Shown piece after piece: positions 17,128 through 52,995 of a stretch of DNA of 64,000 bases. How positions within the stretch are numbered: position 1 is the stretch's first letter; the number at the start of each line of letters is the position of its first letter. The position numbers and the translations under genes were made by a program. The stretch is from an uncultured Candidatus Peribacteria bacterium. GTDB lineage: Bacteria; Patescibacteriota; Gracilibacteria; Peribacterales; Peribacteraceae. The stretch is taken from assembly GCA_964533375.1 (NCBI GenBank), contig CAZHLW010000003.1, positions 17,823-81,822 of the forward strand, written 5' to 3'. Under the pieces are notes generated by a model. It searched no databases, had not been told where the DNA came from, and was given only the letters and a program-made list of their open reading frames with translations.

Positions 17128-17873
17128 AAACGGTGATGATCCTGCTGCGGCGTCTGCACTGGTTTTGGGTGACTGTTCTGTATGAGCTGAGTCTCGTACT
17201 CCAGTATCCTGTGATGACAGCATGGTATCTCTGGGTGCGCACAAGCGACGGCCGTGTGCATTTTTCGATTGGCGACAGTCACGCACTTTTTAGCTTCGCA
17301 CGCATCCGTCATATCATTCGTTTGCCTATTGGACCTGTAACCATGCACCGTATTGGACGGGACGGACTTCAGGCATTTCCCCTCTTCCGGACGCACTCTT
17401 TCTTCTGGCCACAGCGGACACTACAAAAAGGGGACACAGTGTTTTTTTCGTTTGGAGAAATTGATTGCCGGTGCCACATCAACAAACAGATTGAGAGCGG
17501 ACGCACGGAAGAAGACGTCATCAGCAGTCTTGCAACTGCGTACGTACAGGCCATCGTGCAGGAACGACACGACGGTGTAACCTTTGCGCTGATGAGCGTG
17601 ACGCCGCCCGCACGCGCGGCGGATCTGCAGGATTTCCGTATTTTCCAGCCGCAGGGATCGGACGAAGAGCGATCGCGCTACACACGTCTTTTGAATGAAG
17701 CATTGCAGAGGCAGGCGATGCAGCATCATCTTCTGTACGTTGATACCTACAGCCACTACAAAGATGCAGACGGTATGCTGCGCTATCCCCTGTCCGACGG
17801 GAAAACGCACATCAGTGATCCAGATGGAATGCGGCAACTAGTCCATCACTCTCTCGGTGATGATGGAGTGTGA
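17124..17873 (+). CDS. Hypothetical protein, possibly SGNH/GDSL-type hydrolase
   Basis: 249 aa. 4-nt overlap with the upstream gene. GDS-like block (FSIGDSHA) and a later FSFGEIDCR block. Weak assignment. Confidence 0.3.
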   Translation: MKTVMILLRRLHWFWVTVLYELSLVLQYPVMTAWYLWVRTSDGRVHFSIGDSHALFSFARIRHIIRLPIGPVTMHRIGRDGLQAFPLFRTHSFFWPQRTLQKGDTVFFSFGEIDCRCHINKQIESGRTEEDVISSLATAYVQAIVQERHDGVTFALMSVTPPARAADLQDFRIFQPQGSDEERSRYTRLLNEALQRQAMQHHLLYVDTYSHYKDADGMLRYPLSDGKTHISDPDGMRQLVHHSLGDDGV

Positions 17874-18982
17874 TGCTGCGTGACAGCAGTTTCCAAAAAT
17901 GCCAGTGCATCGCGGGCGGTTGTTTCCCATGAAAACTGCGAGGCAAACGTGCGGGCCGCCTCCCCCATTGTCTTGCGCTGGTCGGGGTTTTGCAGGAGAG
18001 AGTTGATGCGCGCAGCGAGTGCATGCGTATCGCCATGTGAAACAAGATAACCCGTCTCGCCATCGCGCACCGATTCACGCAGACCCGGCGAATCACTCGC
18101 GACAGTCGGCACACAGCAGGCTCCGGCCTCGGTGACCGCAAGTCCCCATCCTTCATTGGAGGAAGTCTGCACCGCCACCCACGATTCCTGCAGCAGTTTT
18201 TTCTTGCCCGCTTCATCCATGTACCCGCAAAAATCCACCGCGTGAGTGATGCCAAGCGCCGCTGCAAGTGCACGCAATTGCATTTCCGCATCCCCTCTTC
18301 CGACAATTCTTAAACGTAATTCCGGAAATTGCGGAAGTACTTCCTTCACAGCCTGCAGGATGTGATCAATGTGTTTGTAGCGCTTGAGGCGCCCGATGTA
18401 GATGAGGCTCGGGTACGGCGTTTTAGCAACGGCAGGATCGGCTTCAAATAAATCAGGCGGTAAGCCGGCGTATGTGACATTGATTTTTTCAGGAGCGATC
18501 CCGCGGCTCCGCAGATCGCCCGCGGTACTCTGTGAATTCACCCAAAAGTGCGACTTTCGGTACACGGAGGGGATCATTTTTTCGTAGGCGATCCACGCGA
18601 GTCCGGCAGGCAGAGACAGTTCCTCAAAAATAGTGCGCCCGAAGAGGTGCGGAATCATCACTGCAACAGGCGCAGAGCGCACGGTAAGCGGCAGCAGACA
18701 CGGTACTTTGCTGATGTACTCCAGAATGACATCATACTTTTTTGCATGCATGCGGCGTATTTTGAGTGGCGCCCACCAGTGAAACACGTATTCCGACGGC
18801 CCGCGGATGAAACGGATACCATCAATGTTTTCCTCGCTGATGCTCCCCGGAAATCCCGCACAGAGCACATCGACTTCGTGCCCCCATTGCACCCAGTATT
18901 TCCCGGTCTGGTACACAATCTGTTCGAGTCCGCCGGCCTGCGGATGCAGACTATCCCGATGATTCACAACCAGAATGCGCAT
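17846..18982 (-). CDS. Glycosyltransferase, GT-B fold (GT4-like)
   Basis: 378 aa. MRILVVNH...GGLE N-terminus and the E-x7-E region (EGWGLAVTEAGACCVPTVASDSPGLRESV..GETGYLV). Confidence 0.8.
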   Translation of the reverse strand: MRILVVNHRDSLHPQAGGLEQIVYQTGKYWVQWGHEVDVLCAGFPGSISEENIDGIRFIRGPSEYVFHWWAPLKIRRMHAKKYDVILEYISKVPCLLPLTVRSAPVAVMIPHLFGRTIFEELSLPAGLAWIAYEKMIPSVYRKSHFWVNSQSTAGDLRSRGIAPEKINVTYAGLPPDLFEADPAVAKTPYPSLIYIGRLKRYKHIDHILQAVKEVLPQFPELRLRIVGRGDAEMQLRALAAALGITHAVDFCGYMDEAGKKKLLQESWVAVQTSSNEGWGLAVTEAGACCVPTVASDSPGLRESVRDGETGYLVSHGDTHALAARINSLLQNPDQRKTMGEAARTFASQFSWETTARDALAFLETAVTQHHTPSSPRE

Positions 18983-19033: not shown

Positions 19034-19870
19034 GTGGATATGGTCTTGTCACAGACAGTTCTCATTACCGGAGCCAACGCGGGCATTGGATACAAGACCG
19101 CGGAACTGTTTGCAGTGCGCGGCTGGCGGGTGATTGCGTGTACTCGAAAAGGAAGCGGCTATCCGGTGCACACAAATATAGAAGGCATGGTGATGGATAT
19201 GAACGACCACGCGTCTATTGATGCCTGCCTGCAGGCGCTCTCAGAAAAAGGAAAGATGCCGACGGTTCTTGTGCAGAACGCGGGATTTGGATTGCAACTG
19301 CCGTTTGTGTCGATGACAGACAGTGATGTGAAAACAATGTTCCAGACAAATGTTCTTGGTGTGATGCACCTCGCACAGGAATGGCTGAAACGACGGGATG
19401 CAAAAACACCAGGTGTGATGATGACGGTTGGGTCATTGGCCGGACAAGTGGGTCTGCTGTACTTCAATGTCTACTGCTCCACAAAACATGCTGTTCGCGG
19501 CTGGAGCGAAGCACTCTGGCAGGAGCTCACACCACACAATATTGCCGTGAAGTTGATTGAGCCGCTTAACCGTGTGGAGACGGATTTTTTCCGTGCAGCA
19601 AACAAGCAGGAAGAAGATCATCCGATTCCGGAAAACGACAGAGCCCGCTATGAAGCGTATCAGGCAGAGAGGGCACACATGATGCGCACCGCATTGAGCG
19701 CCACCGATGTGGCAGAGACCATTTTCAGAGCAGCCACCGACGGCAGAAAGAAACTCTACTACCCCGTCTCCAAGGGAATTGCCACGCGCGCACTGTACGT
19801 CGTCCATCGCATTGCACCATCTCTGGTGAACCGTTTACTTGGCCTCGTGATCTACAGTCGTCTGAAGTGA
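19034..19870 (+). CDS. Short-chain dehydrogenase/reductase (SDR)
   Basis: 278 aa with TGANAGIG (TGxxxGxG) and YCSTK (YxxxK). Confidence 0.8.
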   Translation: MDMVLSQTVLITGANAGIGYKTAELFAVRGWRVIACTRKGSGYPVHTNIEGMVMDMNDHASIDACLQALSEKGKMPTVLVQNAGFGLQLPFVSMTDSDVKTMFQTNVLGVMHLAQEWLKRRDAKTPGVMMTVGSLAGQVGLLYFNVYCSTKHAVRGWSEALWQELTPHNIAVKLIEPLNRVETDFFRAANKQEEDHPIPENDRARYEAYQAERAHMMRTALSATDVAETIFRAATDGRKKLYYPVSKGIATRALYVVHRIAPSLVNRLLGLVIYSRLK

Positions 19871-20785
19871 TGCAGACCGCAGGACATACACAAGTGATGC
19901 TGCGCGACGCGGACGGAGAAGACCGTACAGAACATCGATGATGCCAAGAAGAGCGCCGCGCAGGGCAGGCCCTTTGAGCAGACGTTCGTAGTAGAGGCCC
20001 ATGTAGAGCGGATCAAGATAGAGAGGCCGAATGGATGCCACGCGAAAGCCATGCAGCTCGGCAAGTCGTGTAAGCGTCTCAGGACGGAAATGCCACAAAT
20101 GACGCGGCACATCGTATATGTTGTAAAAGCGCATCAGCGGTCCGCCAATATTGGGCACGGCAATGATGGCAGAGCCGCCGACTTTCAGAAGCCGGTGAAT
20201 CTGATCGATAGTTCCATGCAGATCGTGCATGTGTTCGAGGACGTGCCAGAGGGTAATAGCATCGAATGATGCAGACGGAAGCTGAGCGAGTACTGCAGCA
20301 TCCAGACAGGAAATATCCTGCGACTCGCAATGCGCCCGCATTTTGGCGTTCTGCTCTGTAGCAGTCACGTTCCAGCCTTTCTGTTGCATCATCAGCGGAA
20401 ATTCACCGCTCCCGCAGCCAATATCGAGCAGGTGACCGGTAGACAGATGTGATGCTTGTTCGACCAGCCTGCGTTTCCCGGGAAGACGCACCCATGTCCG
20501 CGCGCGCTGCACAAGATGCATGCATCCGCGCTGCGTGATGTCGTGGGGAATGTACGCATCTGTGTCGTAATATCTGCCGATGTCCTTTTCCTGCGGCACA
20601 TCCTGTGTGAAAAGAAAACTGCAGGATGTACAGCGGAGAATCGTGAATGTTTCCTTTGATACGAGATCATCGCGACAGGTGAATGCCGTCTCAAACTTTG
20701 ACGCACCGCACAGCGGACAAGCGGTGTAGTGAAGAACGTCGGATGGAGGAACTGTCATAAAAAAAGTATAGCAAGAGAGGTACAC
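19835..20785 (-). CDS. Class I SAM-dependent methyltransferase with N-terminal zinc ribbon
   Basis: 316 aa. CPLCG...CTSCSF ribbon and motif I LLDIGCGSGEF. The true start may be the internal MTVPP at about 20758. Confidence 0.75.
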   Translation of the reverse strand: MYLSCYTFFMTVPPSDVLHYTACPLCGASKFETAFTCRDDLVSKETFTILRCTSCSFLFTQDVPQEKDIGRYYDTDAYIPHDITQRGCMHLVQRARTWVRLPGKRRLVEQASHLSTGHLLDIGCGSGEFPLMMQQKGWNVTATEQNAKMRAHCESQDISCLDAAVLAQLPSASFDAITLWHVLEHMHDLHGTIDQIHRLLKVGGSAIIAVPNIGGPLMRFYNIYDVPRHLWHFRPETLTRLAELHGFRVASIRPLYLDPLYMGLYYERLLKGPALRGALLGIIDVLYGLLRPRRAASLVYVLRSASLQTTVDHEAK

Positions 20786-20793
20786 TCACGCTG

Positions 20794-21669
20794 ATGAGTC
20801 CAAACGAAGCAACCTGCATCCTCTGCAAAGGCGAACCTGCAACATTCCTCTATTGTGATGATTTTCTGACAAACGGCGGCGCGTACAGACTGGTCCGCTG
20901 CAACGACTGCGGTTTTGTATGGACAATCGATGCGCCGGATAGCGAAGGAATTGGCCGATTCTACGACTCTTCCTACGAGGAACGCATTCATCCTCCTTTT
21001 GCACTGCATTTTCTCCGCCAGTTGCGACTGCGCCTACAGTCCAACAGCCGGGCGCGGATGATTCAAAAGAAGAGAGGTGATGCAGGACGTGTTCTGGATA
21101 TCGGCTGCGGGAACGGTAATTTTTTACTCGCGATGAAACGGCGTGGATGGGCTACTGTAGGCGTCGAGCCGTCTGCGATCAGACGAAAGGAATTGGAAAG
21201 CGCGGGCATTACGATGTGTGATGCAAAGAGTTGGCATAGTCTTCCGGATGCATCCGTTGACGTGATTACCCTCTGGCATTCACTGGAACATCTGCATGGA
21301 TTACCCGAAGCGGTTACGCAGATTGCAAGAATTCTGAAACCCGGAGGACATTGCATTGTTGCCGTTCCCAATGCCGGATCGCCGCAGGCACAGCGCGACG
21401 GAGCACGGTGGTTCGGGTACGACGTCCCGCGCCATTTATGGCACTTCACGCCAAAGACGCTGACGACACTGCTAGGTCAGCATCAACTGAAAGTAGAGGC
21501 AATACGCCCTATGCGACTCGATCCGCTCATTATGAAAGCATTCATTTCCGTACTGCAGCAGCGCAGAGACTGGTTGCCGGCAATCATCAGCAGTGCGTTT
21601 GCTGATGCACTCTTCGTGCGCACAGCCGATGCCGCGCCGTGCATGCTGTGCATTGTACAAAAGAGATGA
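20794..21669 (+). CDS. Class I SAM-dependent methyltransferase with N-terminal zinc ribbon (paralog of 19835-20785)
   Basis: 291 aa. CILCKG...CNDCGF ribbon and motif I VLDIGCGNGNF. Shares ITLWHSLEHL and VPRHLWHF blocks with the divergent neighbour. Confidence 0.75.
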   Translation: MSPNEATCILCKGEPATFLYCDDFLTNGGAYRLVRCNDCGFVWTIDAPDSEGIGRFYDSSYEERIHPPFALHFLRQLRLRLQSNSRARMIQKKRGDAGRVLDIGCGNGNFLLAMKRRGWATVGVEPSAIRRKELESAGITMCDAKSWHSLPDASVDVITLWHSLEHLHGLPEAVTQIARILKPGGHCIVAVPNAGSPQAQRDGARWFGYDVPRHLWHFTPKTLTTLLGQHQLKVEAIRPMRLDPLIMKAFISVLQQRRDWLPAIISSAFADALFVRTADAAPCMLCIVQKR

Positions 21670-22292
21670 GTACACTGCTTTTGATGATCCGTCGTTTCCT
21701 GTTTCGGCTCTTCCCGCCTGTCGTATCGCTGATAGGCCGTTTGTACATGCGCCTCTGCGGATGCAGCGTACCGGGAAATGCAAAAATCTACGGACTGCCG
21801 CGCCTGCTTCGAATGGAAGGAAAGCTCCGCATCGGCAACAATGTCTTTCTGTGTTCCATGCCATCGGTCAGTCCATCGGGGCAGGAATTCAGCCGCTGTT
21901 CTTTTTCCGCAGACAGGGGCGCCAGTATTGATATTGGTGACGACACATCGATTGTGGGGTCCGCCATTCACGCGAGCAGCAGTGTGACTCTTGGCAAACG
22001 CGTGATGATTGCGCCGGGCTGCAGAATTGTTGATACGGATTTCCATGCGGTCGATGCTGTGCCGCATGTGCATCACGCTGACACCAATCCGCAGCCGATT
22101 CGTATTGAAGATGATGTGTGGCTGTGTACGCAGGTGATGGTGTGTAAAGGTGTGCGGATAGGACACGGCAGTGTGATTGGCGCCAAGAGCCTGGTGACAT
22201 CCGATATTCCGCCAATGGTGCTGGCAGGCGGTATTCCGGCAAAAGTCATCCGCCCGCTGGCAGTAGGTGATCATCCTTCCGCTTCCGTATGA
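21666..22292 (+). CDS. Hexapeptide-repeat (LbH) O-acetyltransferase
   Basis: Internal ATG that overlaps the upstream stop (ATGA). Hexapeptide repeats present (IGDDTSIVGSAIHASSSVTLGKRVMIAPGCRI..., IEDDVWLCTQVMVCKGVRIGHGSVIGAKSLV). Confidence 0.75.
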   Translation: MSTLLLMIRRFLFRLFPPVVSLIGRLYMRLCGCSVPGNAKIYGLPRLLRMEGKLRIGNNVFLCSMPSVSPSGQEFSRCSFSADRGASIDIGDDTSIVGSAIHASSSVTLGKRVMIAPGCRIVDTDFHAVDAVPHVHHADTNPQPIRIEDDVWLCTQVMVCKGVRIGHGSVIGAKSLVTSDIPPMVLAGGIPAKVIRPLAVGDHPSASV

Positions 22293-23413
22293 AGAGCCCG
22301 CGCGCCCGGTGCATTGCGTTCTACCTGCCGGCGTTTTATCCCTTCCCGGAAAATGATACGTGGTGGGGAAAAGGATTCACCGAGTGGTGGCTTGTGCGTG
22401 AAAGACAGCCGCTTTTTAAGACTCACCAACAACCGCGTGTGCCGGATGAAAACCTCGGGTACTACAACACGCTGGATGCAGATACGCGCAGGAAGCAGGC
22501 ACAGATGGCAAAAGACTGTGGCATAGAAGCATTCTGCTACTGGCACATGTGGTTTGGGCACGGCAAACAATTGCTCCACGAAACTGTAAAAGAAGTGATG
22601 CAATCCGGTGAGCCGCACATGCCGTTTTGTCTGGCGTGGGCGAATCAGACCTGGACACGCAGGTGGGCCAGAACGGGAACAATCAGTAAAACGCTGATGG
22701 AACAAACCTATCCTGGCGATGATGATATTCGTGCGCACTTTGCAACCGTCCTCCCGATGTTTCAGGACCCGCGTTACCTTCGCATGCATAATCAGCCGCT
22801 CTTTATTCTGTATAAACCGTTTGCGGTACCGGATCTGGAAAGATTCATAGCACTCTGGAACACACTCGCACGCGATGCAGGAATACCTGGCATTTTCTTT
22901 TTGGGAATGATTGCACCGCATGAAAAATCGCCGACAGTTCTGGGACTCCACGGTTTCATTCGCCATCAGCCTGCCACGGATTTGATGCGCTACGGACAAT
23001 CCGTGATGAAAAAAACACTGCGAGGAAATGTCATGCCGCTCCTGCGCTTCCTTCGCGGTGCCCTGCGCCGCCCGCAGGTGTTTGATCACGGCACTATCGT
23101 ACAGTCGGCGATGACAGCAACACTGGAACAGAATGAATATCTGCAAGTCCTAACCAACTGGGACGACACGCCGCGACAGGGGAAAAACGGCACAATCTTT
23201 CAGGGAAGTACGCCGGACCATTTGCAATCGGTGATGCTGCACGCAGTCAAAGAATTGCAGTCACGCCCGCAGGAAGAACGCCTGCTCTTCCTGAAATCCT
23301 GGAACGAGTGGGGCGAGGGAAATTACATCGAACCCGACACGCAGACAAAAAACGGCTATCTGGATGCCGTACGCGCAGTGTTACGCGGTGATGATACGTC
23401 TACTTCTTCCTGA
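22289..23413 (+). CDS. WbsX-like glycan-biosynthesis protein (GH99-like/WbsX family)
   Basis: 374 aa. N-terminal AFYLPAFYPFPENDTWWGKGFTEWW signature remembered from WbsX-type proteins. ATGA overlap with the upstream gene. Confidence 0.6.
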   Translation: MKSPRARCIAFYLPAFYPFPENDTWWGKGFTEWWLVRERQPLFKTHQQPRVPDENLGYYNTLDADTRRKQAQMAKDCGIEAFCYWHMWFGHGKQLLHETVKEVMQSGEPHMPFCLAWANQTWTRRWARTGTISKTLMEQTYPGDDDIRAHFATVLPMFQDPRYLRMHNQPLFILYKPFAVPDLERFIALWNTLARDAGIPGIFFLGMIAPHEKSPTVLGLHGFIRHQPATDLMRYGQSVMKKTLRGNVMPLLRFLRGALRRPQVFDHGTIVQSAMTATLEQNEYLQVLTNWDDTPRQGKNGTIFQGSTPDHLQSVMLHAVKELQSRPQEERLLFLKSWNEWGEGNYIEPDTQTKNGYLDAVRAVLRGDDTSTSS

Positions 23414-24570: not shown

Positions 24571-24984
24571 ATGAAAACCCGTACAGCTCTTACTATCGGC
24601 GTTATCGGCACGGCAGGTGCTGCGGCTACGTATTTGTATAACCGCCCGAAATTGCGGAAGGAAATGATGAAGGCGGATTCCGCGCAGGAAGCGGCAGCGC
24701 TCTTTACAGAGCAGATTGAAAAAGATGCAGCGGATGTTGCAAAAAGTATGAAGAAGAAAGCCATGCACAACTGGCTGATGGATGAACTGCGCAGCAGCGG
24801 CAAGGCTATCAAGAAGCGCATCACAAAGGTGAAGTCCCATGCAAAGGCAGACGTGAAAGCGGTGAAGCGCGAAGGCAAAGCAATGCTCAGCGAGATGAAA
24901 CAGGAGAAGGCGCATGTGGAGCGCAAACTTCGCGAGACTGCAAAGAAGTCCGCAGAGGCGGTTGCGGAGAAGGCAACAGCGTAA
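24571..24984 (+). CDS. Small membrane-anchored coiled-coil protein (YtxH-like, tentative)
   Basis: Internal ATG of the 24340..24984 ORF, giving 137 aa. N-terminal helix (ALTIGVIGTAGAAATYLY), then a K/E/A-rich helical region. Confidence 0.45.
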   Translation: MKTRTALTIGVIGTAGAAATYLYNRPKLRKEMMKADSAQEAAALFTEQIEKDAADVAKSMKKKAMHNWLMDELRSSGKAIKKRITKVKSHAKADVKAVKREGKAMLSEMKQEKAHVERKLRETAKKSAEAVAEKATA

Positions 24985-25053: not shown

Positions 25054-26316
25054 TTAATCGCAGATGTAGCGGTTGTTTGAGTCGTAGTAACAATCGTCGT
25101 CGTCATTGTAGTCGTCGTCACAGCGGTAGCGGCCATTGTTGTCGTAGTAGCAGTAGTAGTCGTTGTAGTTGTCATCATCGCACTGGTAGCGGCCGCGGTT
25201 GTCGTAGTAACAATTGCTGTCCTGGTAGCGGTCATCGCCGCTGCAGCGGTAACGGCCGTTGGTGTCGTAGTAGCAGCCGCTGGAGTTATCCGCAGTGCCA
25301 CAGACACGGCGTCCGTCGGAGTCGTAGACACAGTCTCCGTCGTCATCGTCATAACGATCGTCGCAGCGGTAGCGGTTATTGGAATCGTAATAACAATCCT
25401 CATCGTCATTGTCATCACAGATATAACGTCCGCTGTTGTTGTAATAACAATCGTTGTCATTGTCGCAGCGATAGCGGTTATTGCTGTCGTAATAGCAGTC
25501 ATTATCGTCATCATCATCACACACATACCGACCGTTGCTGTTGTAGTAACAATCGTCATCGGTGTTGTCGCAGTGGTAGCGGCCGCGGTTATCGTAGTAA
25601 CAGGTGTCGTTGTTCTGGTAGTAGGTGTCGTAGTTATAATCCTCGTAGTCGTCGCAGTAGTAGTTGTTGCGGAGATCGTAGTAGCAGTGGCGGTTGCTGC
25701 CGCCGTTCACGATATCGTCGTAGGACTGGGAGGAACGGCTGCGGTCATTGGCATCCAGGCGGTAGACAATGTCTGCCAGTTCGCCGCGGGTGACTGCATC
25801 GTCGACATCGTTAATGCTTGTCGGGATGGCATTGCGGTCAGCAAGGGCGCGGACGTAGGTATCGGACCAGCGGCCGGTGCTGGTGTAGCGGGCGTCCAGG
25901 TCGAAGGCCATGGCAAGAACCTTGGCTACTTCTTCAAAGGTAACCTCGCGGTCGGGACCGAAGCTGCGGCTGCCGTAGCCGGTCATGTATCCCCTGTCGT
26001 ACACGTACTCGATGTACGGTGCGTACCAGGCGTTTTCGTCGGTGTCATAGAAAGGAAGGGAGACAGAGTCATATCTGCTGACACGTCCGTTCTCGATCAG
26101 CGTGACGACTTTTGCGAATTCCGCGCGGTTCAGGTGGTTCCGCTCTCCGAATGATCCGTTGTCGTATCCGGTCATGAATCCCTCGTCCTGTACGTAGTCG
26201 ATAGGGTCGTTATTCCGGTAGTTGGCCGATGTATAGGTCTTTGCAACGGCAGGAGTCGACGATGCGACAACCGCGACGGTCACAACTGCGCTGATGAGAG
26301 AACGGGAGGTGAACAT
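25054..26316 (-). CDS. SLH-domain surface protein with 11 C-terminal 'CYYD.NGRY.C + acidic linker' repeats
   Basis: Internal ATG giving 420 aa. Signal-like N-terminus (MFTSRSLISAVVTVAVVASSTPAVA). SLH-like repeats present (FGERNHLNRAEFAKVV; FYDTDENAWYAPYIEYVYDRGYMTGY...VTFEEVAKVLAMAF; AVTRGELADIVYRL). Residues 211-420 form the repeat region. Confidence 0.8.
   Translation of the reverse strand: MFTSRSLISAVVTVAVVASSTPAVAKTYTSANYRNNDPIDYVQDEGFMTGYDNGSFGERNHLNRAEFAKVVTLIENGRVSRYDSVSLPFYDTDENAWYAPYIEYVYDRGYMTGYGSRSFGPDREVTFEEVAKVLAMAFDLDARYTSTGRWSDTYVRALADRNAIPTSINDVDDAVTRGELADIVYRLDANDRSRSSQSYDDIVNGGSNRHCYYDLRNNYYCDDYEDYNYDTYYQNNDTCYYDNRGRYHCDNTDDDCYYNSNGRYVCDDDDDNDCYYDSNNRYRCDNDNDCYYNNSGRYICDDNDDEDCYYDSNNRYRCDDRYDDDDGDCVYDSDGRRVCGTADNSSGCYYDTNGRYRCSGDDRYQDSNCYYDNRGRYQCDDDNYNDYYCYYDNNGRYRCDDDYNDDDDCYYDSNNRYICD
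25057..25686 (-). repeat. Coding tandem repeat: 11 units of C-Y-Y-[DN]-x-x-[GN]-R-Y-x-C followed by a 5-17-residue Asp/Asn/Tyr-rich linker
   Basis: Counted directly in the translation: 22 Cys, always paired at C-x9-C spacing. Unit length varies from about 16 to 28 aa. Confidence 0.85.
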
Positions 26317-26348
26317 AGGAATGGAGGTAATGAAGTACCCTATACTGC

Positions 26349-26380
26349 CAGAAAAGGCGGATCTTGGGAACCCGCCTTCG
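26349..26380 (-). terminator. Hairpin (possible attenuating terminator) after the DsbA-like gene
   Basis: Minus-strand AAGGCGG-gttcccaagat-CCGCCTT followed by TTCTGG, lying between 26402 and the start at 26316. Confidence 0.4.
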
Positions 26381-26401
26381 AGAAACAGTCCTTTTAGGCG
26401 G

Positions 26402-27169
26402 TTATTTGAGGAGATTATCAAAAACCTTCTTGAAAGACGCGAAGTCCTGCGCACCCTGAATCAGGGCTGTTTTGCCATCCGGTCCAAGCACCCAGAAAGA
26501 CGGCACACCACCGACTCCCCCGTCACTTGCGGCCTTCATATCCTCTTCAATCTGCGGGATAGTGGCCCCGGTATCAATGCAGTAGTACATCGCTTCGGTG
26601 TCGATGCCGTTCAGCGACTGGAAAGCGGCATAGACATCGTCCGCAGTCAGCTCGTCACCGTCTTTGGTGGCAGCGAAGAATTTCTTCTGAAGCTGGAGTG
26701 CGTAGCCTTCCGACTGCTCTCTGCTGCATTCAATAGCCTGAGCTGCAACGGATGCTGCTGCATGGAAACTTAAGGGCAAGTTGCGGAACACGAAGCGAAC
26801 TTTGCCGGGTGTAATGTAACGCTTCTGGATAGTGGGCAGTGTTTTCAAAGCAAACTGCGTGCAGAACGGACACGCATAGTCGATAAATTCCACAACAGTG
26901 ATGGGCGCGTCAGCATCACCAAGTGTGTAGCCGTTTGCAGGAAGAGCAGGCGTGTAGTCCCCTACTTTCTGATACGGCGTATTAATAGTCGCTTTTGGCG
27001 TCGTGGAGCCATTTGTACGAGTCGTAGCCTGCGTCTGGCGGCCTTCACGATGGGTGTTTACCAGAGTGCGGCGGGACACACGCTCTGTGCCCTTGATGGT
27101 GTAGGCAGAAGCGAGAGCGGGCTGGAGTGCAAATGTCAGAGTCAGTGCGGAGAGAAAGAGTTTGTGCAT
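26402..27169 (-). CDS. Secreted DsbA-like thiol:disulfide oxidoreductase (thioredoxin fold)
   Basis: Internal ATG giving 255 aa. Signal peptide (MHKLFLSALTLTFALQPALASA) and a CPFC active site in VVEFIDYACPFCTQF. Confidence 0.8.
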   Translation of the reverse strand: MHKLFLSALTLTFALQPALASAYTIKGTERVSRRTLVNTHREGRQTQATTRTNGSTTPKATINTPYQKVGDYTPALPANGYTLGDADAPITVVEFIDYACPFCTQFALKTLPTIQKRYITPGKVRFVFRNLPLSFHAAASVAAQAIECSREQSEGYALQLQKKFFAATKDGDELTADDVYAAFQSLNGIDTEAMYYCIDTGATIPQIEEDMKAASDGGVGGVPSFWVLGPDGKTALIQGAQDFASFKKVFDNLLK

Positions 27170-27406: not shown

Positions 27407-29539
27407 ATGGATTCCTTCCGACAGAAAAAGGCCGACGCAATCCGCGCAAAGGGCGGGCAGCCGTATGCTGCAAAATTTAACCGGACGCATACATTGAGCG
27501 AAGGGCGTGATGCCGCAGAGGATACGGCGATGACCGTCTGTGGCCGTGTCATGCTGATGCGCGATATGGGAAAGATGGCGTTTCTCACGCTTCAGGACCA
27601 TACCGGGCGCTTGCAGCTGGTCTTCAAAGCGGATGATCTCGGCGCGGATATATATAAGGAAGCAATGAACCTGATCGACCTGGGCGATATTGTGGGTGTG
27701 AGCGGCAAGCGCTTTGCCACACAGAAAGGCGAACCGAGTGTGATGGTGGAAAACTGGCAGATGCTGAGCAAGGCTCTCCGCCAGCCGCCGGAAAAGTGGC
27801 ACGGCATTGCCGATCAGGAAACTGCCTGGCGTCAGCGGTATCTGGACATGACCAGTAATCGTGAGACGTTTGACCGGTTCCAGTTTAGGTCGAACTTTAT
27901 CCAGCGCCTTCGTAAGTTTTACTGGGACGAAGGATTTACCGAAGTCGAAACACCGGTGCTGGTGAATGCTGCGTCCGGCGCACTGGCGACTCCGTTTCAG
28001 ACGCACCACATGGCCTACGACAGCGATATGTTCCTGCGTATTGCCCCGGAAACCTTTCTGAAGGAATGTCTGGTGGGAGGGTTCGATAAGGTGTTTGAAT
28101 TGGGGCGGGTGTTCCGCAATGAAGGGCTGGACCCAAGTCACCTGCAGGACTTCACGATGGTCGAGCACTACGCTTCCTACTGGGACTACGTCGCAAACAT
28201 GGATTTTGCGGAGAAGATGATTCCGACTATTTTGATGGATCTGCTCGGGACGACAAAAGTGAAGATTCCGGACCGCGATGGCAATCTGGTGGAAGTCGAC
28301 TTCAAGGCCGGCTGGCCACGCCTGAGTATCCGGGATGTCATCAAGCAATCCTGCGGGATTGATTTCGAAGAGCACAATTCAGCTTCAGCCCTGAGGGAAG
28401 CCATAAAGTCGAAGGGCATCAAGCTGGATGTGAATGTGGAAGCTCTTGGTCGCGGCAACCTGATTGATCAGCTCTACAAGAAAGTCAGCCGCCCGTCCCT
28501 CATCCAGCCGACCTTCATCATGAAGCATCCGCTGGATTTGTCTCCGCTTGCCCGCAGAAACGACGAAAACCCGAACATCACCGACCGCTTCCAGCTGGTT
28601 GTGGGTGGATGGGAAATCATCAACGCCTACAGCGAACTGGTTGATCCAGTCGATCAGGCCCAGCGCTTTGAGGAGCAGGCAAAGGCAAATGCCGGTGGTG
28701 ATAGCGATGCGCACAGAAAAGATGATGAGTATGTAACAGCTCTCGAATACGGATGTCCTCCGTGTTCCGGCTTTGGCATGGGAATCGACCGCATTGTGGC
28801 ACTTCTCACACAGCAGACCAATTTGCGCGATGTGGTTCTTTTCCCGTTGATGAAACCCGATGTAAGTGATCAGCGATCAGAGATCAGGGATCAGGATACA
28901 AAAAAGAAAAATTCCACCCCCGATTACCGATTACCGATTACCGATCACCCGTTGTTATTACAACATGCAGAATACGGCCACCTTCTGGAAGGCGCCCACG
29001 GGCTCATCGAAGCACACGCCGATATGACCAAGGCCCACCTGATTGCAACGGGTGCTGCTATGGAAGCGCTCGCAAAAAAGTTTGGTGGCGATCCACAGAC
29101 CTGGAAAGTGGCAGGCATGCTCCATGATTTGGACTGGGATCAGTTGAACAAAGATTTTGCACAACACTGTGGTGACACATTGGAACACCTCCTCTCGACT
29201 ATCAAAGCTCCGCAAGAATTACTGGCAGACATCCGTGCTCACTACGCAGATAAATATGGTGAGGACTATCCGCTCGATACCATGCTCCGCAAATGTTTGT
29301 ACTGTGTGGATGAACTGACAGGCTTCATTATTGCGGTCACAAAGGTTCGCCCCAGCAAACAGATAGCCGATGTGGAAGTGAGCAGCGTAAAAAAGAAACT
29401 GAAAGACAAGGCGTTTGCGGCTCAGGTTAGCCGTGAACAGATCAGCAGCTGCGAGAGGATCATTCCTATGCCGCTGGATGAATTCATTGCAATAACATTG
29501 GATGCTATGAAGAATGTTGCAGCTGAATTAGGTCTTTAA
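27407..29539 (+). CDS. lysS: Lysyl-tRNA synthetase (class II) fused to a C-terminal HD-domain hydrolase
   Basis: 710 aa. Residues 1-485 are a complete class II LysRS (OB fold, motifs 1-3, ending VVLFPLMKPD). Residues 486-515 are a linker. Residues 516-710 carry H...HD (HLIATGAAM...GMLHDLDWD), typical of the HD superfamily. Confidence 0.85.
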   Translation: MDSFRQKKADAIRAKGGQPYAAKFNRTHTLSEGRDAAEDTAMTVCGRVMLMRDMGKMAFLTLQDHTGRLQLVFKADDLGADIYKEAMNLIDLGDIVGVSGKRFATQKGEPSVMVENWQMLSKALRQPPEKWHGIADQETAWRQRYLDMTSNRETFDRFQFRSNFIQRLRKFYWDEGFTEVETPVLVNAASGALATPFQTHHMAYDSDMFLRIAPETFLKECLVGGFDKVFELGRVFRNEGLDPSHLQDFTMVEHYASYWDYVANMDFAEKMIPTILMDLLGTTKVKIPDRDGNLVEVDFKAGWPRLSIRDVIKQSCGIDFEEHNSASALREAIKSKGIKLDVNVEALGRGNLIDQLYKKVSRPSLIQPTFIMKHPLDLSPLARRNDENPNITDRFQLVVGGWEIINAYSELVDPVDQAQRFEEQAKANAGGDSDAHRKDDEYVTALEYGCPPCSGFGMGIDRIVALLTQQTNLRDVVLFPLMKPDVSDQRSEIRDQDTKKKNSTPDYRLPITDHPLLLQHAEYGHLLEGAHGLIEAHADMTKAHLIATGAAMEALAKKFGGDPQTWKVAGMLHDLDWDQLNKDFAQHCGDTLEHLLSTIKAPQELLADIRAHYADKYGEDYPLDTMLRKCLYCVDELTGFIIAVTKVRPSKQIADVEVSSVKKKLKDKAFAAQVSREQISSCERIIPMPLDEFIAITLDAMKNVAAELGL
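28866..28950. repeat. Heptamer-palindrome element inside the lysS ORF (encodes the LysRS-HD linker)
   Basis: Left arm is GTGATCAGC GATCAGA GATCAGG GATCAGG. The core is AAAAAAGAAAAATTCCACCCC. The right arm is CGATTAC x3 plus CGATCAC. The arms are partly complementary. The element is read in frame as VSDQRSEIRDQDTKKKNSTPDYRLPITDHP. Confidence 0.75.
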
Positions 29540-29621: not shown

Positions 29622-30884
29622 GTGATGCATTTTCTCGCACGCAGGCACCGCTCACAAACGTATCAGCGTTTTATAGAAAGAATAAAACGTCTGCTGGGAC
29701 CGGGGCTTTTTTACACGATCAAGAACGGACCACGGCAGGCATTTGCGATGATGTACCGCCGGAAGCGTCAAAAGATCCGCCGGAAGGCGACGGGAAATGC
29801 GGACTTCATTCTGGTGATTGATCAACAGGTGCCTTCTGCTGACCGCAGCTCCGGGGAATGCAGAATGGATGCACTGTTGAGACTTTTGGCGGAAACAGGA
29901 AAGGACGTGTTTTTTCTTGGCGAAGATACGGCGCGGAAACCCGCCGAGGATTCACTCCGTGCGGCAGGTATCCACGTACTTCATGAATCCGTAAAAGGGT
30001 ATCTGAAACATGCAGGGAAACTGTATGGAACGGTGATTTTCAGCAGGGCGCACATAGCGGAGCAGTACATGGACGCAGTTGAACGGTATGCACCGCAGGC
30101 AGCCATCGTGTTTGATACGGTCGATCTGCACCATGTGCGCATGAAGCGCGCAGCGGAGGTGAAAAAAAGCGATGCGCTCCTGCAAGATGCGCGGAAGATG
30201 GAGAAAATTGAGTTGTCTCTTGCAGCGCGTGCGGATTGCACTCTTGTCGTGAGTGAGGCGGAGAAGCGGTATCTGCAGGAACGTCTGGCGGATGCGCATA
30301 TTTGTGTTCTCTCGAATATCAGCAGTGATCCGGTCAGACCGCATATGGCGCCGGAGCGCAGGCACATGCTCTTTGTGGGAAATTTTTATCATGACCCGAA
30401 CGAGGATGGTATCCGCTGGTTTGTGACTGATGTGTTGCCGCTTATCTGCAAACAACTACCGGATGCAGTATTGGATATTGTGGGATACGGCAGTGATGTG
30501 TTTGTGAAAGACCTGGCTGGCGATGGAATAAGAGTGCATGGACATCAGCCCTTCCTGAAGCCATTTTTTGAGAGTGCACGCGTTTCGGTCGCACCGCTGC
30601 GGTACGGTGCCGGCGTGAAAGGAAAAATATCGATGTCCATGAGCGAAGGCGTTCCGTGTGTCACAACATCTACAGGTGCGGAGGGCATGGATTTAAAAAA
30701 TAATGAGACAGTGCTGATTGCAGATACGCCGGAAGCCTTTGCGGCAGCCGTACTCCGTTTGTATTCCGACGATACACTGTGGATAAAGATTGCGACTTTT
30801 GCCCAGCAGCAAGGGCTGCATCTTTTTTCCAAAGAAAAAGCGCGCCATGCGGTGGAAGAGATGTTTGCTATGATCCGCTCATGA
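29622..30884 (+). CDS. Glycosyltransferase, GT-B fold (GT1/GT4-like C-terminal domain)
   Basis: 420 aa. The track start is GTG, with an ATG one codon later. C-terminal LFVGNFYH.PNEDG...SVAPLRYGAGVKGKI..SMSEGVPCVTTSTGAEGM. Confidence 0.7.
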   Translation: MMHFLARRHRSQTYQRFIERIKRLLGPGLFYTIKNGPRQAFAMMYRRKRQKIRRKATGNADFILVIDQQVPSADRSSGECRMDALLRLLAETGKDVFFLGEDTARKPAEDSLRAAGIHVLHESVKGYLKHAGKLYGTVIFSRAHIAEQYMDAVERYAPQAAIVFDTVDLHHVRMKRAAEVKKSDALLQDARKMEKIELSLAARADCTLVVSEAEKRYLQERLADAHICVLSNISSDPVRPHMAPERRHMLFVGNFYHDPNEDGIRWFVTDVLPLICKQLPDAVLDIVGYGSDVFVKDLAGDGIRVHGHQPFLKPFFESARVSVAPLRYGAGVKGKISMSMSEGVPCVTTSTGAEGMDLKNNETVLIADTPEAFAAAVLRLYSDDTLWIKIATFAQQQGLHLFSKEKARHAVEEMFAMIRS

Positions 30885-31741
30885 AGAGCCCTGGAATCAG
30901 CATCGTCATCTGCACGCATAACCCGACAGAAACCTTTGAGCAGGCGCTTGCGAGTGTGGACAGATTGGAGAACCGGGACCAGACCGAAATTCTGGTGATT
31001 GAAAACGCGTGTCATGCCGCATCAAAAGAAAAGATACATATACTTTTGAAAGACCGGCCGTGGATACGGTTGATTGAGGAACCGACGCTCGGGCTGTCTG
31101 TTGCGCGAAACCGCGGTCTACGCGAAGCGCGGGCACCGGTTGTCGGATTTATCGATGACGATGCGGAACTATCGCCACAATGGGGACATGTGATACTTGA
31201 TACGTTTGCCAGACACCCCGAAGCGGGTGCGGTGGGAGGAAAAGTGGTTCTGGAGTATCTGTCGCCTCCACCGGCTTTTTTGACGGATCTGCACCGGTTG
31301 TACCTTGGATGGTTCGATTGCGGACCGGAGGAAAAAATTCTGTCATTTCCCGACTGTCCGCGCGGCTGCAATATGGCATTCCGCACAGAAGCACTGTCTG
31401 CTGTCGACAGCTTTTCGCCGTGGCTGGGAAAAATCGGCGACAGTCTGGCGTGCTTCGAGGAAATTGATCTCTGCCAGCGCCTGATGCAAGCCGGATGGAT
31501 CAGTCTGTACCAACCCGATGCAGTGGTAACACATCTGATTGAAGCATTCCGCTATCAGCCGGACTGGTTTGTACAAAGAACCTACGAACAGGGGAAATCC
31601 GTGCGGATTTTTGAGCGCCTTGCGGGTTCCTTCTTCCCGTCACCCGCATCTCTGCGGCGCCTGTGTAGTAGCGGCCGACTCGAACGGCTCTTCGCACGCG
31701 GTTACCTGGCGGGGTGCAGGGCAAAATTGCACACGAGATAG
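30881..31741 (+). CDS. Glycosyltransferase family 2
   Basis: Internal ATG overlapping the upstream stop (ATGA), giving 287 aa. ISIVICTHN...LVIENAC...GFIDDDA (DxD). Confidence 0.75.
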   Translation: MKSPGISIVICTHNPTETFEQALASVDRLENRDQTEILVIENACHAASKEKIHILLKDRPWIRLIEEPTLGLSVARNRGLREARAPVVGFIDDDAELSPQWGHVILDTFARHPEAGAVGGKVVLEYLSPPPAFLTDLHRLYLGWFDCGPEEKILSFPDCPRGCNMAFRTEALSAVDSFSPWLGKIGDSLACFEEIDLCQRLMQAGWISLYQPDAVVTHLIEAFRYQPDWFVQRTYEQGKSVRIFERLAGSFFPSPASLRRLCSSGRLERLFARGYLAGCRAKLHTR

Positions 31742-31788
31742 CTGCTGTTTTCATTGGCAGGCCATGTGCTATTCTTCGCCTCCTGCCT

Positions 31789-34191
31789 ATGGATCGCTTC
31801 TGGTTCTCCGTCATCCGGCCCTGTCTGTCCTTTATCGGGGCGCGTGTAATTGCGGAAATCGGGACAGGGAAAGGAGACACTGCCGTTCTTGCGGCGGATT
31901 TCTGCAGGGAACACGGTGCACGCTTTCATACTATTGATACGGCTCCGGCGTTGGATGTGCGTGTTTTTGAGGAAACCCATGCCCCGTACATCACCTGTTA
32001 CCGCGGACGCAGTCTGGATATTTTGCCACACATTCCAACCTACGATGCCATCCTGATAGATGGCGATCACAACTGGTACAGCGTGTTCCATGAACTGGAG
32101 CTTGTCGAACGCCGGCGGCGCGAAACCGATGTGCAGTGCATGGTCTTTCTGCATGATACCGGCTGGCCATATGGACGGCGGGACCTGTACTACGACATCA
32201 CTCTCATCCCGGAAGAATTCCGGCAGGAATCGGAAGTAGCGGGTATCGATCCCGCAACGGATACGCTCTCGCCTGTCGGTTTCAATGCAAGACTGCGGCA
32301 TGCGAAAAAGGCAGGTGGCGACCGGAACGGCGTCCTGACGGCGGTAGAGGATTTTCTGCGCTCTCATCTCGACTGGCAGATTGTGACCGTACCGGGTTTC
32401 TTCGGCCTGAGCATTCTGATCCCCCAGCCGCTTTTAGATGCCTATCCGGATTTTTTGCGGTTTTTGGAACTGATCGTTCCCTCAGAAGAAATGGAGGAAC
32501 ATCTGAAAGAAATCGAGGCAGATAGAATCGTCCATCTTGCGCTATCGCAATCGGTACGGAAAACGAACGATGCCTTGCTGACACAGCTGGAAGAAAAAAA
32601 TATACACATCCGGGAACTGTCAGAGGCAAAAAAAACAGACCCTGCGGAAGAACAGGCAATTGCACAATTGAGGCATATGGAAAGCACGCTGAGCTGGAAA
32701 ATAACGGCACCTCTGCGTATTGCCGGGGCACTACTGCGACGGGATCTGTCTGTCTATAGCGACATGTGGGTACGGATGGGCAGGCCGTTTCCGCGAACCA
32801 TGCGTTTCCTCCGGCACAGACTGCTGGGTGCATTTTTGCCTGCAACGGTTGTAAGTATCCCGCAGCAGATGGTATCGGACACGGCGGTCATTGTCGTTTG
32901 TCCGGAGACGGCTATGTATCTTCCGGATACGCTCGACAGCCTGCTCAATCAGAGCCGGCGCCCCGCGGATATCCTGGTTGTCCGGACAAGTGACGTGCGG
33001 GACGATGTGACGGGCGTCCTGCTTCCCTATCTGGATAAAGGAGTCCGTTTTCTGCAGAGCGGATTTACGACGGCGCTTGCCGCAGCACGTGCCGGAATCA
33101 GCGCGACTACCAGCGGTTTCATCGTGTTTATGGAGAGCGGCGATCTGCTGCACCGCGATTTTGTGGAGTGCAACGAGCTGCTGCTTCTGGAGAATCCCTC
33201 GACAGGTATTGCTATGAGCGATGTCCGTCTCTTTGGCGCACAGAGGGGCTACAGACGCGCACCGGATACCGCAGATACCCATGCACCGCTGTCCATGGAA
33301 AGCCGCCCGCGAAACGGCATCATGATCCGGCGGGAAGCGCTGGAGCAGGCGCGGGGCTGGCCCATGGATCAAAAACAATCGGTCTGGAACGAAATACTGC
33401 AACTGGGATTTCGCGTGCAGCGTAGTATGGGTCTGTACCTGAAACGGGCGACTGCTACAGATATTTTCGCCGACAGCGCGCCGCACAATGCTCTTCTACC
33501 CGCAACGCTCTGTTTGTCTTTAAGCGGACGCAGCTGGGCCTGGCCACTCACAAGCTCCTTTCTGGAAACTCAAACCTATCCCCACGCACTCATCCATCTG
33601 GTGATTGTGGATACGGCGGATGATGCCGCGTTTTCCGCAGTCGTCCGGCGTTGGCTCTCGAGTTGCGACTACCGCAGCGTGACGTATAAAACACTGCGGA
33701 CAGGGCAGAAGGGGCTGGCGGATCTGCCACGTGAAACTGTTGCAAAAGACGTGAGCATTGCCTGTTCCGCTATCTACAATACCTTCGCGCGCACGATCGA
33801 TACACCTCTCGTCTTCACATTGGAGGACGATGTCATTCCACCGCAGGATGCATTCGTGCATTTAAGCACACTGATGACTGGCGACGTGTTGTCTGCTTCC
33901 GCGCTTTACTGGCACCGCGACAAAAAGCAGCCCGTCTGCTGGATCTGGGATCGCGGCGGTCCGGCGTTCCCGGAAAAAGGACACGGCGTGCAGGAGATTG
34001 GCGGAACGGGATTCGGGTGTCTGGCCATCCGCGGAGATGTTTTCCGTAGTACTGTTTTCCAGAGCGGACAGCCGTTTGGAAATTACGATCATAATTTCTT
34101 CGCTCTTCATACGCTCAAAGATTCCAGAACAGCCGTGATCGACTGGGACTGCGTGTGCCGCCATTACCAATCCCCCGACGTATGGTTCTAA
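31789..34191 (+). CDS. Multidomain enzyme: N-terminal class I methyltransferase-like domain, coiled coil, two GT2-like domains
   Basis: About 800 aa from the ATG at 31789; the track ORF starts at a GTG at 31714. Segments: VIAEIGTGKGDT...AILIDGDHNWYSV...FLHDTGWPY; then the coiled coil EEMEEHLKEIEADR...LEEKNIHIRELSEAKK; then AVIVVCPE...LLNQSRRPADILVV and LCLSLSGR...THLVIVDTADD. Confidence 0.6.
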   Translation: MDRFWFSVIRPCLSFIGARVIAEIGTGKGDTAVLAADFCREHGARFHTIDTAPALDVRVFEETHAPYITCYRGRSLDILPHIPTYDAILIDGDHNWYSVFHELELVERRRRETDVQCMVFLHDTGWPYGRRDLYYDITLIPEEFRQESEVAGIDPATDTLSPVGFNARLRHAKKAGGDRNGVLTAVEDFLRSHLDWQIVTVPGFFGLSILIPQPLLDAYPDFLRFLELIVPSEEMEEHLKEIEADRIVHLALSQSVRKTNDALLTQLEEKNIHIRELSEAKKTDPAEEQAIAQLRHMESTLSWKITAPLRIAGALLRRDLSVYSDMWVRMGRPFPRTMRFLRHRLLGAFLPATVVSIPQQMVSDTAVIVVCPETAMYLPDTLDSLLNQSRRPADILVVRTSDVRDDVTGVLLPYLDKGVRFLQSGFTTALAAARAGISATTSGFIVFMESGDLLHRDFVECNELLLLENPSTGIAMSDVRLFGAQRGYRRAPDTADTHAPLSMESRPRNGIMIRREALEQARGWPMDQKQSVWNEILQLGFRVQRSMGLYLKRATATDIFADSAPHNALLPATLCLSLSGRSWAWPLTSSFLETQTYPHALIHLVIVDTADDAAFSAVVRRWLSSCDYRSVTYKTLRTGQKGLADLPRETVAKDVSIACSAIYNTFARTIDTPLVFTLEDDVIPPQDAFVHLSTLMTGDVLSASALYWHRDKKQPVCWIWDRGGPAFPEKGHGVQEIGGTGFGCLAIRGDVFRSTVFQSGQPFGNYDHNFFALHTLKDSRTAVIDWDCVCRHYQSPDVWF

Positions 34192-42773: not shown

Positions 42774-42788
42774 GGCAGGAAGTGTAGC

Positions 42789-46181: not shown

Positions 46182-46187
46182 TTTCTC

Positions 46188-49439: not shown

Positions 49440-49496
49440 ATCATAGCTAAAAAACAGAGAGTCCTGTTTTTTTCTTTCAGCTTACCTTGACGAAAA

Positions 49497-52955: not shown

Positions 52956-52995
52956 TCTGCATCCATCCTACGTATGCCGATACAAAAAGAAAATG

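Follow-up and report, generated by a model that had tools for sequence, protein, structure and literature searches.

The question raised by this locus is what kind of protein results when the C-terminal half of a gene product is built almost entirely from regularly spaced Cys pairs set among Asp, Asn and Tyr residues. The gene lies in a stretch of 64,000 nucleotides (the window) of contig CAZHLW010000003.1 from an uncultured Candidatus Peribacteria bacterium (Peregrinibacteria), a member of the Candidate Phyla Radiation (CPR). It occupies positions 25054-26316 of the minus strand, with its ATG at 26316 and its stop codon at 25054-25056, and encodes 420 amino acids; its limits follow from the open reading frame (ORF), the translation and the homologues described below. 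A sequence-only reading that preceded this analysis had given no strand. An upstream GTG at 26454 would lengthen the ORF, but the ATG was preferred because all homologues begin at an equivalent M-x-x-x-R-S signal peptide. The product appears to be a Sec-exported cell-surface protein, held non-covalently at the wall by three surface layer homology (SLH) repeats, whose C-terminal half would be a string of eleven small beta-hairpins, each closable by its own disulfide. This structural description, taken alone, is regarded as highly probable.

The array covers residues 211-419 (25060-25686, minus strand), as delimited by its units, codons, spacing and predicted hairpins. All 22 Cys residues of the translation are found here, arranged as 11 units of the form C-x9-C, exactly as the sequence-only reading had described. 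Units 1-6 read CYYDLRNNYYC, CYYDNRGRYHC, CYYNSNGRYVC, CYYDSNNRYRC, CYYNNSGRYIC and CYYDSNNRYRC, and units 7-11 read CVYDSDGRRVC, CYYDTNGRYRC, CYYDNRGRYQC, CYYDNNGRYRC and CYYDSNNRYIC, giving the consensus CYYDSN[G/N]RY[I/R/V]C. The linkers between them are 5-17 residues long (mean ~9), rich in D and N, and 51 % Asp. Seven residue types (D, Y, N, C, R, G and S) account for 192 of the 210 tail residues, and with 56 Asp and 2 Glu against 20 Arg the tail has a charge of about -38 at pH 7 (isoelectric point 4.05). Counted with overlap, the tail contains 13 C-x9-C spacings; when its residues were shuffled 100,000 times, the count averaged 2.1 and never exceeded 8. Long plus-strand ORFs run across the array as well (e.g. 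25077-25793); they follow from codon composition and were rejected as unsupported composition artefacts.

A full-length search revealed 13 clear relatives (P0001-P0013; E 1e-160 to 5e-59, 41-73 % identity), and those bearing a name or an organism title are all from Candidatus Peribacteria. Each has a signal peptide and an SLH triplet followed by 5-11 hairpin units, and a local phmmer search with the tail alone recovers the same 13 proteins. Unit numbers of 5, 6, 7, 8, 10 and 11 were found in the family, so that the variation in repeat number which the earlier reading had suggested looking for does exist; linkers range from 5 to 23 residues. Over about 125 units from the 14 proteins the consensus is C1 Y2 Y3 D4 S5 N6 [G/N]7 R8 Y9 [I/R/V]10 C11. 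Both Cys residues are invariant, and Y2, Y3, D4 and Y9 are each present in 84-91 % of the units; of 127 units, 125 have D or N at position 4, and position 7 holds G in 64 and N in 58. Cys residues outside the units occur only in homologues with extra CLIPPER (DUF11) domains or extra linker Cys. Nine relatives (P0004, P0006-P0013) insert 1-3 of these domains (PF01345), sometimes with PF11614, between the hairpin runs, and in P0009, P0011 and P0012 runs of only 2-3 hairpins stand between Ig-like domains. Features common to the family are export together with SLH anchoring, a mini-hairpin that could be closed covalently, flexible and hydrophilic linkers, the association with a gene for a DsbA-like protein and, in the relatives, the alternation with isopeptide stalk domains.

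The units are not interchangeable copies, since the variant unit GDCVYDSDGRRVCG (unit 7; 25297-25338, minus strand) is kept at its position in an alignment of orthologues. It recurs nearly unchanged in P0001 and, twice each, in P0002, P0003 and P0005. The first unit with the NYNYDTYY motif that follows it, and a terminal unit CYYDSxNNY[IV]C, likewise recur at equivalent positions, which argues that the array is neither homogenised nor a repeat of fast turnover. Units have been gained and lost: P0001 lacks one unit of a block that is duplicated in the window protein, where units 3-4 and 5-6 (25360-25556, minus strand) form an internal duplication of two units (102 nt). Tandem Repeats Finder reports this block with a period of 102, 1.9 copies and 82 % matches, next to a 60-nt period at 75 %; over blocks defined from the protein, the two copies share 76 % nucleotide identity. 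The 33-nt units average 68 % DNA identity, their Cys codons are divided equally between TGT and TGC (11 each), and 171 synonymous and 199 non-synonymous codon differences separate them. Judging from these codons, selection on the units acts at the protein level.

Structure prediction with AlphaFold2 (AF2) suggests what such a unit may look like. In the full-length model, based on the family alignment, all 11 units appear as hairpins of 3+3 residues around a five-residue turn, and they do not pack against each other. A fragment of three units, a size that the earlier reading had proposed for structure prediction, again gives three hairpins with no inter-unit packing when modelled from a 30-row alignment (mean predicted local distance difference test score, pLDDT, 65). 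The predicted strands are 3-4 residues long, and the tail has no helices. From the register of the hairpins, C1 and C11 would be opposed at the open end, where a disulfide could staple it. The segment D4-S5-N6-[G/N]7 would form the turn, closed by D4 and R8, and D4/R8 together with the Tyr residues at positions 2, 3 and 9 would provide cross-strand contacts. Y3, Y9 and the disulfide are predicted to lie on one face of the hairpin and Y2 and residue 10 on the other. Gly and Asn are the residues that favour the left-handed position of a beta-turn, and G/N at position 7 would fit that position in a type I turn with G1-bulge or in a type I' turn. A Foldseek search with the full model gave nothing significant for the tail, adenovirus, reovirus and tail-fibre shafts and RhsP all being returned at E>1 with a probability below 0.15.

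The N-terminal half accounts for export and for the wall anchor. Residues 1-25 (MFTSRSLISAVVTVAVVASSTPAVA, followed by K; 26242-26316, minus strand) have the basic residue, the hydrophobic stretch and the A-x-A of a Sec-type signal peptide; the pattern M-x-x-x-R-S-hydrophobic-A-x-A is kept in all homologues, and the window protein is probably cleaved at this site. Residues ~30-190 (25747-26229, minus strand) form a three-repeat SLH wall-binding module, so that the anchoring proposed from the sequence alone is borne out by Pfam, by a PDB sequence search and by the predicted fold. Pfam SLH (PF00395) scores 61 bits over two stretches of the protein (cut-off 20.8), and the NCBIfam match is confined to this SLH-like part. 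In the PDB sequence search the N-terminal region matched SLH domains from Sap, SpaA and SbsB. The motif NRAE (residues 63-66) aligns with TRAE of Sap, and TFEE and TRGE occupy the equivalent sites in repeats 2 and 3; a role of TRAE-type motifs in ligand binding is known from work on SpaA and Sap. R64, E66, T176 and R177 are invariant across the homologue family. In Foldseek comparisons the SLH part of the AF2 model (pLDDT 60-87) superimposes on the crystal structures of SpaA-SLH and of the Sap SLH domain with TM scores (TMt) of 0.68-0.75 (~0.73) and E values of 1e-6 to 1e-4. A spacer rich in Ser, Arg and Asp (residues 191-210; 25687-25746, minus strand), with low pLDDT and a partly kept SRSY-D motif, leads from this module to the array.

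In this part the protein resembles Sap of Bacillus anthracis and SpaA of Paenibacillus alvei, which also have a signal peptide followed by three SLH repeats that form a pseudo-trimeric module with a TRAE-type motif. It differs from both in its host, a CPR bacterium, and in its passenger, which is a 210-residue string of 11-residue units predicted to be Cys-stapled hairpins, instead of a crystallisation domain or an enzyme. A further difference is that the pyruvyl transferase CsaB was not seen in the scanned part of the window. The possibility that it is a true S-layer lattice protein was ruled out because it lacks a folded crystallisation domain.

Directly upstream of the hairpin gene, on the same strand and separated by an 85-nt gap, lies a gene (26402-27169) for an exported DsbA-like thiol:disulfide oxidoreductase of 255 amino acids. 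The protein matches the Pfam models Thioredoxin_4 (83 bits) and DSBA (56 bits), has a CPFC site and begins with the signal-like sequence MHKLFLSALTLTFALQPALASA. In all eight repeat loci fetched (L001-L007 and L055), which cover six other genomes, the hairpin gene has an orthologue of this oxidoreductase gene (42-71 % identity) as its direct upstream neighbour, and none was found in the flanks of the fetched SLH-only loci of a scan of GTDB species representatives. The pair also stays intact where a gene for an RNB ribonuclease (L003) or three other genes (L005) separate it from lysS. The presence of this conserved neighbour makes disulfides within the units plausible, and with one hairpin predicted per Cys pair the eleven intra-repeat disulfides envisaged in the earlier reading remain a credible proposal. 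Peribacteria genomes have been described to encode a single disulfide-bond-formation protein, S-layer genes and Cys-rich extracellular proteins thought to act in attachment (PMC4736985). No GGAGG-type ribosome-binding site precedes the ATG of the hairpin gene.

The repeat itself has not been described before and is very rare, as far as the searches below reach. At E<=10 neither Pfam nor NCBIfam has a model that matches anything in the window protein other than SLH. Searches of the PDB with the tail gave chance matches only (prolidase at E 0.009, over a single stretch of 39 residues, and TcsL at E 0.59, in its repeat-rich C-terminal part), and a three-unit repeat profile found only melanotransferrin (E 0.68). 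In an exhaustive search of 1.84 billion cluster representatives with the profile A2, a clean 30-row alignment of three-unit segments, only 16 proteins were found at E<=0.001. About half of these are members of the Peribacteria family. The others are metagenomic proteins with different C-x9-C hairpin repeats (P0022, P0024, P0025, P0027, P0028 and P0032) and Cys-less proteins with GYYDxNGRW or YDSxGRY repeats belonging to the Pfam families EAGR_box or Bflower_2. When GTDB species representatives were scanned with the alignment of the full-length family, 49 loci were obtained; only two of them, both in metagenome-assembled genomes (MAGs) of Peribacteria, contain the repeat. A scan of metagenome contigs with the repeat profile yielded two loci, one of them already known, and a scan of viral contigs with this profile gave no relatives. 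No description of the repeat was found in the literature on disulfide-hairpin repeats, Tyr-rich repeats or Peribacteria SLH proteins; a paper on a diatom Tyr-rich protein proved to be unrelated. The repeat is confined, on present sequence data, to one small lineage. The earlier statement that it belongs to no known domain family stands insofar as no curated family or solved structure matches it; it needs qualification in that the core of the unit echoes, as a motif, known Cys-less hairpin repeats (beta-flower, EAGR, WG). The protein carrying the repeat is an otherwise ordinary SLH-anchored, repetitive surface protein. New in the unit are the Cys staple, the D/N-only linkers and the freely varying number.

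The metagenomic C-x9-C proteins are unrelated to the Peribacteria family and also have a D-x-x-G tip in their units. P0022, from a Tara Oceans contig, contains about 15 copies of CYWDEYDNYIC joined by Ser/Thr linkers. Small secreted metagenomic proteins with C[IV]VDSFGKxxC, or with CYINEKGEQIC and KR-containing linkers that recall Kex2-processed repeat precursors, were found as well. The idea of a stapled hairpin may have arisen several times. A role of the window protein itself as a precursor of this Kex2 type, or of a ribosomally synthesized and post-translationally modified peptide, was ruled out by its linkers, which lack processing sites, and by its SLH anchor.

The following picture is proposed. 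After Sec-dependent export the SLH module would tie the protein non-covalently to a wall glycopolymer, and the upstream DsbA-like oxidoreductase would most likely introduce the disulfides. The C-terminal half would then be a beads-on-a-string arrangement of eleven autonomous 11-residue beta-hairpins, each stapled at its open end by the C1-C11 disulfide and joined to the next by a flexible, very hydrophilic linker, which in the lineage of the window is polyanionic. What projects from the wall would be an extended tether or coat, stabilised covalently, resistant to proteases and strongly hydrated. The array most likely serves the envelope as a tough spacer or as an element of presentation, and it may have a role in attachment, because in relatives the same hairpin strings alternate with CLIPPER (DUF11) stalks, isopeptide-bonded domains of the kind found in fibrillar adhesins. 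CLIPPER (PF01345, formerly DUF11) was described as an isopeptide-bonded, CnaA-like stalk domain of such adhesins (bioRxiv 10.1101/2025.04.25.650565). These stalks and the window tail as proposed have in common that tandem, covalently stabilised modules build up an elongated surface protein. However, according to Pfam the domain itself is absent from the window protein, in which the cross-link would be a disulfide in an 11-residue unit and not an isopeptide in an Ig-like fold of ~110 residues. Taken as a whole package, an SLH-tethered string of disulfide-stapled hairpins serving as a tough, hydrated and protease-resistant tether or coat, and possibly as an adhesive one, is considered moderately probable.

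Several points weigh against this proposal. Organisms of this kind are likely anaerobes, which bears on the formation of disulfides. In the full-length AF2 model the pLDDT of the tail stays below 50, and the fragment reaches a mean of 65. The pyruvyl transferase domain PS_pyruv_trans (CsaB) was not encountered among the 25 ORFs of the window that were scanned, which leaves a pyruvylated secondary cell-wall polymer as a putative ligand of the SLH module. The adjacency of the DsbA-like gene could partly reflect general synteny in one class, as lysS and a ribosomal-protein operon are also syntenic. Co-transcription of the pair is not assured either, because the gap between the two genes holds a 5-bp GC stem and a T-run. 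In this gap (26317-26401, minus strand) the inverted repeats CCGCC...GGCGG...CCGCC are followed by TTTTCT and allow two alternative 5-bp GC stems, the second of which is terminator-like. Finally, architecture and analogy are what suggests a coat or adhesin role for the protein.

A more far-reaching version of the proposal takes the unit for a mini-domain that folds autonomously around a single disulfide. It would have arisen in Peribacteria, with the adjacent DsbA-like protein as its dedicated oxidase, and would be used as a redox-sensitive, Tyr-presenting tether that attaches these putative episymbionts to partner cells or surfaces. If so, hardly any smaller tandem folding module would be known from bacterial surface proteins, and reduction would unstaple the hairpins and alter the reach and the stickiness of the coat. 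This version is regarded as rather doubtful.

Among the alternatives, the acidity of the tail first has to be considered. The sequence-only reading had suggested cation or mineral binding. On this view poly-Asp linkers, helped by Tyr residues, would sequester Ca2+, Mg2+ or other metals or nucleate a mineral, the hairpins being spacers. The high charge and Asp content of the window tail agree with this, and the close homologues P0001, P0004, P0006 and P0007 are equally acidic. However, the Asp fraction of the linkers falls from 0.65 in P0006 to 0.22 in P0003, 0.10 in P0008 and 0.01-0.02 in P0010 and P0013, with Asn, Ser and Thr as substitutes and an unchanged hairpin consensus, while the local GC content shifts only from 0.54 to 0.48 across the same range. 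The conserved element is therefore the hairpin and not the charge, since linker acidity varies while the hairpin consensus holds. Furthermore, the net charges of hairpins and linkers co-vary (r = -0.88, n = 14, not corrected for phylogeny): basic hairpins, with R at positions 8 and 10, are paired with poly-Asp linkers, and neutral ones, with I/V at position 10 and N/Q at position 8, with Asn/Ser/Thr linkers. This points to internal charge balancing and not to a free polyanion. As a conserved function cation binding has thus to be given up, and as an explanation of the array it is unlikely; in the D-rich lineage to which the window protein belongs, the tail may nonetheless bind cations with high capacity. 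For the conserved Tyr residues, hairpin stability is a sufficient explanation.

About equally unlikely is a compact tail, in which neighbouring hairpins associate into one or two closed barrels of the beta-flower type, with 4-6 petals each, or form some other solenoid or a fibre. Such a tail would represent a binding domain related to the hairpin repeats of the beta-flower, MORN-variant or cell-wall-binding kind. Petals of beta-flowers have short strands, 4-residue tips with [DNEQ]xxG and connecting loops of ~9 residues (Durairaj et al. 2023, PMC10584680). The window units share the [DNEQ]xxG-type tip and the short strands (3-4 residues), and the D-S-N-G tip and mean linker of ~9 residues come close to the petal dimensions. 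More generally, beta-flowers (PF21784/PF21785/PF21786, clan CL0395), the EAGR box (PF16713) and WG_beta_rep (PF14903) are, like the window unit, short hairpins with a period of ~17-20 residues and a core of the type aromatic-aromatic-Asp-x-x-Gly-basic-aromatic. An alignment of A2 to P0030, a member of Pfam Bflower_2 (PF21785; 49.9 bits), with hhalign gave 84 % probability (E 7.5e-6) over 41 columns with a matching period, on a short motif of biased composition. The repeat profile also matches the EAGR-box proteins P0026 (E 4.6e-6) and P0031 (E 4.7e-4), although hhalign of A2 against P0026 gave only 19 % probability. The same type of hairpin motif, Y-(Y/F)-D-x-x-G-(R/K), is known from YD (RHS) repeats (PF05593) and from choline- and cell-wall-binding repeats (PF01473), the latter including the CROPs of clostridial toxins.

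On the other hand, none of the profile models for beta-flowers, EAGR box, WG_beta_rep, YD/RHS repeats or CW_binding_1 matches the window protein at E<=10. The closed 4-, 5- or 6-fold barrel with a hydrophobic channel that is typical of beta-flowers was not borne out, as AF2 predicts isolated hairpins and packs no units, albeit in low-confidence models. The linkers vary in length (5-23 residues) and contain no hydrophobic residues, unit numbers vary as well, and the runs of 2-3 hairpins between Ig-like domains in P0009, P0011 and P0012 are incompatible with a closed barrel. The fibre shafts among the Foldseek matches of the tail, as mentioned, are not significant. Beta-flower, EAGR and WG repeats have no Cys, while the window units are bracketed by Cys, are joined by variable D/N-only linkers, vary freely in number and have no predicted barrel; YD/RHS and cell-wall-binding repeats also lack Cys and pack into shells or solenoids. 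With respect to beta-flower, EAGR and WG repeats, homology is indistinguishable from convergence on a motif of 8 residues.

Still less likely is that the Cys pairs are functional thiols, either in a metallothionein-like metal-thiolate binder at the surface or in an extracellular redox buffer; the DsbA-like protein would then reduce or isomerise the array. The tail has 22 Cys in 210 residues, and its host is likely anaerobic and, as is generally known for CPR bacteria, would lack a respiratory chain by which DsbA could be re-oxidised. Only one disulfide-formation protein has been reported (PMC4736985). These points would favour free thiols, but strict C-x9-C spacing across a predicted hairpin is the classic geometry of a cross-strand disulfide, unlike the CxC/CxxC motifs of metallothioneins or the knuckles of zinc ribbons. 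There are also no conserved His or extra Cys ligands, and the neighbouring protein has, besides its DsbA/Thioredoxin_4 fold, both a CPFC site and a signal peptide. C-x9-C spacing is shared with the twin Cx9C (CHCH) proteins of the mitochondrial intermembrane space. In these proteins the motifs lie on paired alpha-helices held by two inter-helix disulfides, whereas the window units are predicted beta-hairpins with one pair within each unit, and in view of these models the likeness is a coincidence. An assembly artefact or a non-coding low-complexity tract, as might be suspected from the extreme composition and the long spurious ORFs on the opposite strand, has practically no chance of being true, given that the units differ at 32 % of their nucleotides with many synonymous changes and that homologues of the same architecture occur in independent assemblies (NCBI MAGs, JGI, ENA and Logan), with P0001 on 8 contigs and P0008 in two sources.

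The hairpin gene lies within a cell-envelope glycan island that extends over ~16000-36600 of the window. This island encodes a WbsX-type glycosyltransferase (GT; 22289-23413), a GT4 (17846-18982), two GT1 enzymes (29622-30884 and 34155-35084), a GT2 (30779-31741) and a fusion of a methyltransferase with a GT2 (31714-34191). Also present are two S-adenosylmethionine-dependent methyltransferases (19835-20785 and 20794-21669), a short-chain dehydrogenase/reductase (19034-19870) and an ABC-2 exporter pair (35065-36614). The composition of the island is consistent with synthesis of a wall glycopolymer. Lysyl-tRNA synthetase (27407-29539, plus strand; 710 amino acids) has a C-terminal extension of ~225 residues past the class II core recognized by Pfam, which ends at residue 482; the extension has no Pfam match, and its length is kept in homologous loci (proteins of 716-723 amino acids). 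Convergent with the hairpin gene, 24571-24984 (plus strand) encodes a Lys/Ala/Glu-rich protein of ~137 amino acids with one N-terminal hydrophobic segment, and a gene for 133-148 amino acids without a Pfam match is found at the same convergent position in L001-L004. Further along, five tandem large ORFs (39861-56487, minus strand; 970, 1130, 1083, 1152 and 1163 amino acids) appear paralogous, with common motifs such as CG(A/T)(A/T)AFELYVC. Two of the three that were scanned gave sub-threshold matches to DUF4215 (Myxococcus Cys-rich repeat). They resemble the large cysteine-rich extracellular proteins described from Peribacteria (PMC4736985).

CPR bacteria such as Peribacteria have not been cultivated and probably live as symbionts, and next to nothing is known about their envelopes. 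Among their extracellular proteins, those rich in Cys have been put forward as likely attachment devices (PMC4736985). To this picture of the CPR envelope the window protein contributes a module that is very small, clearly bounded and accessible to experiment. If the hairpin does not fold alone, the array would simply add to the lineage-specific low-complexity tails of SLH proteins, and such surface tails are common. If it does, it would be a natural minimal scaffold for peptide engineering and would extend the strategies of covalent stabilisation in surface fibrils, which comprise isopeptide, thioester and disulfide bonds.

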